Shown one piece after another: positions 40,463 to 42,302 of a stretch of 64,000 bases of DNA. The notes below the pieces were generated by a model that worked only from the letters and a program-made list of their open reading frames with translations, searched no databases and had not been told where the DNA came from. Positions within the stretch are counted from its first letter, which is position 1, and each line of letters starts with the position of its first letter. This stretch comes from Escherichia coli (GTDB taxonomy: Bacteria > Pseudomonadota > Gammaproteobacteria > Enterobacterales > Enterobacteriaceae): NCBI RefSeq assembly GCF_003334385.1, contig NZ_QOWN01000016.1; one strand, written 5' to 3'. Made by a program: the position numbers and the translations under genes.

Positions 40463-41187
40463 GTAAAAGCCGCTTAACGGTGTTTAGTTTCGTTCGCCGT
40501 TTTCTTTTGCGGTTAATGGTTGTCCTCGCCGTTTTCTGGGGCGGGGGCATCGCGTTGTTTAGCGTTGCGCCTGTTCCCTTCTCAGCGGTAATGGTCGAGC
40601 GACAGGTCAGCGCCTGGCTGCATGGCAATTTTCGTTACGTGGCACATTCTGACTGGGTCAGTATGGATCAAATCTCGCCGTGGATGGGACTGGCGGTGAT
40701 TGCCGCAGAAGATCAGAAATTTCCTGAGCACTGGGGCTTTGATGTCGCTTCCATTGAGAAAGCCCTGGCGCACAACGAGCGCAATGAAAACCGTATTCGC
40801 GGTGCTTCAACGATTTCTCAACAGACAGCCAAAAATCTCTTTTTATGGGATGGGCGTAGCTGGGTTCGAAAAGGGCTGGAAGCCGGATTAACGCTGGGGA
40901 TAGAAACGGTCTGGAGCAAAAAGCGTATCCTGACGGTTTACCTGAATATCGCCGAATTTGGCGACGGTGTGTTTGGCGTCGAAGCTGCGGCACAACGTTA
41001 TTTCCACAAACCCGCGAGCAAACTTACCCGGTCGGAAGCTGCATTACTGGCAGCTGTATTACCTAATCCACTTCGTTTCAAAGTCTCCTCGCCATCGGGC
41101 TACGTGCGTAGCCGTCAGGCGTGGATTTTACGGCAGATGTATCAGTTAGGCGGTGAGCCGTTTATGCAACAACACCAGCTGGATTAA
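40459..41187 (+). CDS. mtgA: Monofunctional peptidoglycan glycosyltransferase
   Basis: 242 aa with an N-terminal transmembrane segment; overlaps the elbB stop by 4 nt. Confidence 0.93.
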
Positions 41188-41816
41188 GCTTCGCGCGAAG
41201 TGAGGGCCAGCGTTTTGCTCTCACGAGGTTGCAGATCTTTCTGCAGGGCAATAGCCAGCGCCGGTTGGGCGATAAATCGTTTCCATAACCGCTCTTGCTT
41301 ACGCAGACAACACCACTTCGACCAGGTCGCCAGTGGAATCAATGTGCTTTCACCAATGTTGTCGCAGACGACCGGGATAACCTCTGACTCACTGATGCGG
41401 TGACAGAGGATATTCTGCGGCTTCAGCGACATCGTCACGATACGGTTATCCTGCAAATAACGCTTCAGCTGTTTCAGTAGCTGGCGCAGTTGTGCAATGT
41501 CTTCTTCGTAACGGCATTGTTCAGCAAATTCGGTCAGCGTAATGGAAGGCTTGCCGTCAAAATCTGCAATCACATCGTAGACATAACCGGTTCCGCAATC
41601 CGTCTCAACGGTACCGTGATAGCGCGGTATTCCACTCCAGTCTTTTAACCGGCGACCAAGATGCGCGTAGTACTTTAACTCACGGCGGATCTCTTTATCG
41701 CCACCATCGCCACGATGGTAGACAATCTTGATACAGCGTTGGGCATCTTCCGGATGCGCATAACATTTCCGATGTCTTCCGGTGCCCAGGGGACTTTGTT
41801 CAGATAAGCGAATCAT
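41184..41816 (-). CDS. yrbL: YrbL (PhoP-regulon protein of unknown function)
   Basis: 210 aa from [24 protein letters not shown]; convergent with mtgA and overlapping it by 4 bp; a PhoP-box-like repeat lies upstream. Confidence 0.85.
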
Positions 41817-41866
41817 GCCATCTCCTGGAAATATTTTCTGACGATCTCCAGTATGGTCGATTAACT

Positions 41867-41883
41867 TAAACAAAACCTAAACA
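41867..41883 (-). promoter_or_regulatory. PhoP-box-like direct repeat (TGTTTA-N5-TGTTTA) upstream of yrbL
   Basis: Minus strand reads TGTTTAGGTTTTGTTTA about 50-67 bp upstream of the yrbL start; matches the PhoP box consensus. Confidence 0.55.
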
Positions 41884-42029
41884 ATGCCTCTTAAGGTTTT
41901 CTTAAGGTTCTTCTGAAAGTGAAAAGCGCACAAAATGTACAAATGACGTTGATTGAGAACGATTTCAGTACGTGATTTTCTTATTGTCGGGGGGAGTTTG
42001 AAGGGAGTTGTATGTCAAAGTGATGAAGA

Positions 42030-42302
42030 TTAATCTTCATCAAAACCAGAATTAAAGAGGGCGATAACGGCGGCCAGTGCTTCCTCTTCCTGTGGACCGG
42101 TCGCTTCAACTTCAATCTGCCGTCCTTTGGCAGAATCCAACATCAGCAGCGCAATAACGCTGTTGGCTTCAGCCTCGGTGCCTTCGTCATTACGTAAGAG
42201 CACTTCAGCGTCAAAACCCTGCATTAATTCAAACAGCTTCATTGCAGGCCGGGCATGCATGCCCAGCTTGTTTGTGATTTCAACAGTTTGCTTGACGGTC
42301 AT
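42030..42302 (-). CDS. npr: Nitrogen-PTS phosphocarrier protein NPr
   Basis: 90 aa HPr-like protein; recognised as PtsO/NPr. Confidence 0.93.

Follow-up and report, generated by a model that had tools for sequence, protein, structure and literature searches.

Which regulators act on the yrbL promoter of Escherichia coli, and is the direct repeat in front of this gene one of their binding sites? We addressed this question in a 64,000-nt stretch of DNA, hereafter the window. A sequence-only reading had described a TGTTTA-N5-TGTTTA repeat on the yrbL coding strand, about 50 bp upstream of the start. It had proposed that the repeat matches the PhoP consensus and mediates Mg2+/PhoPQ-dependent activation. 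We found that the repeat is real in every detail. The proposal also holds, and it describes something already known: the repeat is the documented PhoP box through which PhoP turns on yrbL, and it is a textbook site of that regulon, not a new one.

The direct repeat and its core promoter

The 1.3 kb surrounding the site are 95-100% identical to all 5,426 complete E. coli genomes, which assigns the locus to this species, and the genes are arranged in the order mtgA, yrbL, npr, rapZ. The yrbL product matches the NCBIfam family NF007671 from end to end (398.9 bits, residues 1-210 of 210). The name "PhoP regulatory network protein YrbL" is given by this family and by RefSeq in all listed genomes, and thus already documents the link to PhoP. 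We place the ATG at 41816 because the RefSeq coordinates, the full-length coverage of NF007671 and the AGGAG motif all point to this codon. Positions of the features discussed here are collected in Table 1.

On the minus strand, the box reads TGTTTAGGTTTTGTTTA and has no mismatch to the direct repeat (T/G)GTTTA-N5-(T/G)GTTTA. The gap between the box and the ATG is exactly 50 nt (41817-41866), so both strand and distance had been read correctly. The box can also be written as two 11-nt tandem units, TGTTTAGGTTT and TGTTTAAGTTA, and a repeat finder independently returned an 11-nt tandem repeat (41863-41873 and 41874-41884) with 91% identity. Counting both strands, the perfect pattern TGTTTA-N5-TGTTTA occurs once in the window against 0.01 occurrences expected from dinucleotide-preserving shuffles, one of 100 of which contained a match. 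Allowing up to two mismatches gives 5 matches, no more than chance would produce (5.27 expected). Thus, only the perfect site stands out.

Table 1. Features of the yrbL promoter region in the window. Conservation is the mean majority fraction in an alignment of 23 promoters.
Feature	Position	Strand	Basis	Conservation
yrbL CDS (210 aa), the regulated gene	41184-41816	minus	RefSeq annotation of identical E. coli sequence; NCBIfam NF007671 equivalog	
5' leader, GTCAGAAAATATTTCCAGGAG	41820-41840	minus		0.80
Shine-Dalgarno AGGAG, within the conserved leader	41822-41826	minus	sequence	
Predicted transcription start region	41842-41848	minus	colinearity with the S1-mapped Salmonella promoter	
-10 hexamer CATACT	41850-41855	minus	11 nt 3' of the box; conservation; same hexamer in Salmonella	0.91
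Box-to-(-10) spacer, AGTTAATCGAC, 11 nt				0.61
Degenerate -35 TAGGTT, inside the PhoP box	41874-41879	minus	2/6 matches to TTGACA, 18-nt spacer; same in Salmonella yrbL	
PhoP box TGTTTA-GGTTT-TGTTTA	41867-41883	minus (yrbL strand)	sequence; pattern count; repeat finder; orthologue conservation	0.82
PhoP half-sites 1 and 2	41878-41883 and 41867-41872	minus		0.86 and 0.85
6-nt gap between PmrA and PhoP boxes				0.49
PmrA/BasR box CTTAAG-AAAAC-CTTAAG (CTTAAGAAAACCTTAAG)	41890-41906	minus	0.03 expected; repeat finder; conservation	0.87
Variable spacer, upstream block to PmrA box				0.53
Upstream block, TTGTACATTTTGTGCGCTTTT	41922-41942	minus		0.84

The core promoter around the box has a weak -35. 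A scan of 41700-42100 for sigma-70 consensus promoters and terminators found nothing, which is expected if an activator must replace the -35 element. Given this empty scan, the assignment of the -10 hexamer rests on its conservation and on the Salmonella table. A poor -35 (two of six consensus bases) and the lack of a consensus promoter in the scan are both traits of an activator-dependent promoter. Moreover, the box lies in direct orientation on the yrbL strand, overlaps the -35 and precedes the -10 by 11 nt. This is the layout known as architecture I, in which the distance to the -10 is about 12 nt and for which the 11 nt of yrbL are a published exception (PMC3335776).

From the -10, a 33-nt stretch carrying the AGGAG motif leads to the ATG. 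With a 32-nt leader, as in Salmonella, transcription of E. coli yrbL would start at about 41848; with the canonical distance of 5-8 nt from the -10, it would start at about 41842-41845. The S1 start of Salmonella lies just 2 nt past the -10 hexamer, an unusual distance (PMC3335776). Therefore, either this start or the assigned -10 is imprecise. Conservation of the 5' leader extends well past the Shine-Dalgarno motif, and could reflect a post-transcriptional control site or the context of the start site. An Rfam scan of the intergenic region returned a single sub-threshold match to a eukaryotic snoRNA, which we regard as noise, and thus no evidence of an RNA element.

Conservation and PhoP dependence of orthologous promoters

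Orthologous promoters were retrieved by searching a single genome of each species for a degenerate DNA pattern that encodes the YrbL N-terminal motif GTGRHRKCY, an anchor that is independent of the promoter. Among the 26 loci obtained, we discarded a chance match in Sphingomonas, a contaminant labelled Tannerella and two loci ending short of the promoter. The remaining 22 upstream regions and the window make up an alignment of 23 promoters from at least seven genera, with orthologues from Escherichia, Citrobacter, Pseudocitrobacter, Intestinirhabdus, Siccibacter, Cedecea, Pluralibacter and an Enterobacteriaceae MAG. Salmonella, Klebsiella and Enterobacter fell outside the scan set, as their N-terminal motif evidently differs; Salmonella was covered through the literature.

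This set is phylogenetically clumped (six Escherichia, eight Citrobacter), and its fractions are descriptive, overstate the number of independent observations and carry no significance test; read in this way, they give the whole PhoP box a value of 0.82 against 0.49 and 0.61 for the adjoining spacers. The best conserved non-coding block is the -10, which reads CATACT or GATACT in 21 of the 23 promoters. Outside Escherichia, the usual box is CGTTTA-N5-CATTTA at the same 11-nt distance from the -10. In most of these genera, half-site 2 is CATTTA rather than TGTTTA and the box has three to five mismatches to the strict consensus. Escherichia, Citrobacter, Pseudocitrobacter, Siccibacter and Intestinirhabdus retain both the GTTTA/ATTTA cores and the 11-nt register. 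Weaker boxes in the same register are present in Cedecea and the Enterobacteriaceae MAG, and Pluralibacter has only a degenerate AATTTG-N5-AATTTA without an aligned -10.

Control by PhoP is well documented at the orthologous promoter of Salmonella enterica. There, a single box in direct orientation, TCGTTTAGGTTTTGTTTAA, lies 11 nt from a CATACT -10 (PMC3335776), and the values tabulated for it include TAGGTT as the -35, 18 nt for the spacer and 32 nt for the leader (PMC3335776, Table 2). A single S1 start is active in 10 uM Mg2+ and silent in 10 mM Mg2+ as well as in a phoP mutant, and the Salmonella boxes have been footprinted with PhoP by DNase (PMC3335776). In vivo, PhoP-P occupies the yrbL promoter early, and transcription of yrbL precedes that of the other PhoP-activated genes (PMC4196223). 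The two promoters differ in the first half-site, which is CGTTTA in Salmonella and TGTTTA, the perfect consensus, in the window. Since the -10, the -35 and their spacings in the window equal those of Salmonella yrbL, with its footprint and its S1 start dependent on PhoP and low Mg2+, we consider the E. coli box to be PhoP-dependent as well.

Shigella falls phylogenetically inside E. coli. The yrbL site predicted in Shigella flexneri 2a, tTGTTTAggtttTGTTTAa (PMC5775216), is identical to the window over 19 nt, and there is no difference at the level of the box. A Shigella yrbL promoter fragment with this identical box is shifted by phosphorylated PhoP in EMSA (PMC5775216). Deletion of phoPQ reduces yrbL mRNA to 0.02 of the wild-type level by microarray and to 0.07 by qRT-PCR, which corresponds to a decrease of about 50-fold in the microarray (PMC5775216).

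Two further promoters share the layout. In Salmonella, yrbL is classed as architecture I together with mgtA and phoP, with class II activation predicted for the class and demonstrated for mgtA (PMC3335776). The mgtA and phoP promoters of E. coli and Salmonella likewise carry a (T/G)GTTTA-N5-(T/G)GTTTA box over the -35, about one helical turn from the -10, in a class II layout, and activation of mgtA has been shown to be independent of the alpha-CTD. Unlike yrbL, with its 11 nt, they have 12 nt between box and -10. Further differences are the long regulatory leader of mgtA, the second, constitutive promoter of phoP and the lack of a neighbouring PmrA box in both.

As to E. coli itself, the primary work on yrbL control is reportedly that of Minagawa in 2003 and Zwir in 2005, which we know through the papers that cite it. 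Later studies treat yrbL as an established member of the PhoP regulon and use it as a reporter or a deletion target (PMC13215669, PMC2789325, PMC5740661). Expression of a PyrbL-gfp fusion rises upon PhoP induction, and yrbL reporters respond weakly and saturate early (PMC13215669). BasR and PhoP are the regulators given for E. coli yrbL (PMC4145685). Deletion of yrbL has no effect on PhoP reporters (PMC2789325), and no function of YrbL within the circuit is known. Hence, the Mg2+/PhoPQ-dependent activation anticipated from the repeat is borne out by published work on this promoter or on near-identical orthologues. Since EMSA, Mg2+ and phoP-mutant experiments have been published for the yrbL promoter or for identical orthologues, our results add little beyond confirmation. 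Their value is that of a positive control, in which a sequence-only reading recovered a real, experimentally validated operator. For those who use PyrbL as a PhoP reporter, they also provide three leads: an in-register PmrA box, allele frequencies from 5,426 genomes and a conserved upstream block.

The PmrA/BasR box and competing readings of the repeat

The sequence-only reading dealt with activation by PhoP and left out the repression that is also known, for which a PmrA/BasR box lies just upstream. The two boxes are separated by 6 nt, and the PmrA/BasR box falls within a region (41889-41909) that contains the 11-nt unit AACCTTAAGA twice. A PmrA box is defined by the half-sites CTTAAG and NTTAAT with 5 bp between them (PMC3973317). 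The site found here conforms to this definition, its second half-site ending in G instead of T. Among the 23 promoters, it is also more conserved than the PhoP box (0.87 vs 0.82). Read from the sequence, the four half-sites of the two boxes start 11, 12 and 11 bp apart, and are therefore all on much the same side of the helix.

Repression of yrbL by PmrA is stated for E. coli and predicted in Salmonella in PMC3335776, which draws on Zwir 2005, and PMC2681069 and PMC4196223 repeat it from the same source. In Salmonella, the PmrA box of yrbL is about 24 bp from the PhoP box (PMC2681069), compared with 23 bp, centre to centre, in the window. Moreover, in iron-adapted populations of E. coli B, yrbL is down where basR and eptA are up (PMC13405929), a fall that agrees with repression by BasR. 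In line with the published repression, we propose the CTTAAG repeat as a predicted repressor input for PmrA/BasR. A similar two-input logic is found in Salmonella pmrD, with a PhoP box at the -35 and a repressing PmrA box upstream, and pmrD and yrbL have been described as a bi-fan motif (PMC2681069). The pmrD boxes are about 38 bp apart, unlike those in the window, and the pmrD product feeds back on PmrA, whereas no circuit role is known for YrbL.

The segments 41863-41881 and 41891-41909, separated by 9 nt, form an imperfect 19-nt inverted repeat with 79% complementarity; read on the opposite strand, the PhoP box resembles a PmrA box through a common TTAA core. This inverted repeat may be merely the product of two adjoining AT-rich sites with 11-bp periodicity.

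Taking these data together, we propose the following scheme. PhoQ phosphorylates PhoP upon sensing low Mg2+, cationic peptides or an osmotic upshift. A PhoP-P dimer would then bind the two TGTTTA half-sites, which are spaced by 11 bp, one helical turn, and face the same side of the DNA. Placed 11 nt upstream of CATACT, the occupied box would take the place of a usable -35, and PhoP would most likely act as a class II activator, recruiting sigma-70 RNA polymerase to an otherwise inactive promoter. The class II contact with the polymerase is suggested for yrbL by its shared architecture with mgtA, the one promoter for which it has been demonstrated. PmrA/BasR, bound at the adjacent in-register box, would provide a second, negative input that lowers the output, a manner of repression that we infer. 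We assign a probability of roughly 0.95 to the repeat being the PhoP box of the E. coli yrbL promoter and acting by this class II mechanism with a PmrA input. This assessment combines sequence, geometry, rarity, conservation and identity or near-identity to characterised orthologous sites, all from the present analysis, with the PhoP binding and the phoP and Mg2+ dependence reported in the literature for identical or orthologous sites. Caveats aside, nothing contradicts it.

The other readings that we considered would take the repeat out of PhoP control. An AT-rich intergenic region may yield such a motif by chance, without any regulatory role: only 12 bases are specified, 0.01 matches per 64 kb amount to about one perfect chance match in an E. 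coli-sized genome, and sites with up to two mismatches occur in the window at the chance rate. However, a chance motif would hardly be expected in the correct orientation 11 nt from a conserved -10, or to be kept across genera while its flanks diverge, or to have identical and near-identical orthologues in promoters that are bound by PhoP and depend on it. We consider the probability of this coincidence negligible. Practically no weight falls on the possibility that the region is coding. In the mechanical list of open reading frames, the yrbL frame runs up to an in-frame TTG at 41873, within the box, and the repeat would then encode the N-terminus of a longer YrbL. Against this, the RefSeq start is at 41816, the 210-aa protein already spans the family model end to end, an AGGAG stands 5 nt ahead of its ATG, and the orthologues carry indels between box and ATG whose lengths are not multiples of three.

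The repeat might instead be the main target of another regulator of the OmpR/PhoB family, for instance PmrA/BasR spreading from the adjacent box, with an indirect dependence on PhoP. The complementarity between the two box regions (79% over 19 nt, on the opposite strand), their common TTAA core and 11-bp periodicity, and the better conservation of the PmrA box would all fit such a reading. Nonetheless, EMSA with purified PhoP-P gives a shift of the Shigella yrbL fragment, and footprinting places PhoP on the Salmonella box (PMC5775216, PMC3335776). In Salmonella, moreover, occupancy by PhoP-P in vivo comes early, and no other gene of the regulon is transcribed before yrbL (PMC4196223). The half-sites themselves are perfect for the PhoP consensus and lack the CTTAA of the PmrA half-sites CTTAAG/NTTAAT. 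This makes a primary role for another family member very unlikely.

Box alleles and the conserved upstream block

Three alleles account for the PhoP box in 5,389 of the 5,426 complete E. coli genomes, and all of them keep GTTTA in both half-sites. The window type, TGTTTAGGTTTTGTTTA, is present in 3,345 genomes (62%). The allele TGTTTAGATTTCGTTTA is found in 1,196 (22%), with matches that include Nissle 1917, and is also seen in an ST131 strain; TGTTTAGGTTTCGTTTA is found in 848 (16%), with matches that include O157:H7. The alleles differ at the first base of half-site 2 (41872), giving TGTTTA in 62% and CGTTTA in 38% of the complete genomes, and an additional G-to-A change in the spacer (41876) is present in 22%. 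The matches carrying the C allele thus include O157:H7, Nissle 1917 and ST131 genomes. This T/C difference falls on the first, degenerate position of the half-site, and CGTTTA half-sites are present in the footprinted Salmonella boxes (PMC3335776). Therefore, all three E. coli alleles would be expected to be functional.

A different kind of variant affects the PmrA box. In the ST131 strain 4993 (NZ_CP103557.1), an 11-bp deletion has removed exactly one of the two PmrA units in 41889-41909 and left a single half-site. The deletion occurs in one of the 5,426 complete genomes, which rules it out as a feature of the population; it is due either to rare slippage or to a mistake in the assembly.

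The alignment also contains a conserved 21-nt block, TTGTACATTTTGTGCGCTTTT, which lies about 40 bp 5' of the PhoP box and has variable sequence on both flanks. It is common to Escherichia, Citrobacter, Pseudocitrobacter, Intestinirhabdus, Siccibacter and Pluralibacter, and its conservation is level with that of the PhoP and PmrA boxes. We found no regulator or function for this block in the literature surveyed, and the scans returned neither an Rfam match nor a sigma-70-like promoter within it. Comparison by eye with consensus sequences gave no support for any of four candidates. A sigma-54 -24/-12 element lacks its GG doublet, and the G that is present is not conserved in Siccibacter; a CRP site would have a right half that is wrongly spaced and not conserved; the A-tract of a marbox is not conserved in Citrobacter; and just the first half of the RstA-like TACATnTnGT is present. 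It is conceivable, if rather doubtful, that the block represents a third, undescribed input to the yrbL promoter and that, separately, the T/C allele sets lineage-specific PhoP thresholds for yrbL.

Several minor observations concern the neighbouring DNA and the assemblies used. A perfect 8-bp AT-rich inverted repeat, ATGAAGAT-TA-ATCTTCAT, spans the stop codon of npr (42023-42040, minus strand). Our scan of the stretch from npr to yrbL revealed no intrinsic terminator in E. coli, and therefore read-through from the rpoN operon into yrbL may be possible in this species. A T-run at the end of npr is obvious in several other genera.

Upstream of yrbL in the Pseudocitrobacter MAG contig CAJYVI010000036.1, homology to the window ends within the -10 region, and unrelated sequence with a hairpin (ATAGTGTCCAT...ATGGACACTAT) stands in place of both boxes, PhoP and PmrA. 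This change is either a rearrangement or insertion in the promoter or a misassembly of the MAG. Finally, the 420-nt contig NZ_JUET01000135.1, labelled as Tannerella forsythia ATCC 43037, is 99.8% identical over its whole length to E. coli yrbL (41429-41848); E. coli DNA has almost certainly contaminated this public assembly.
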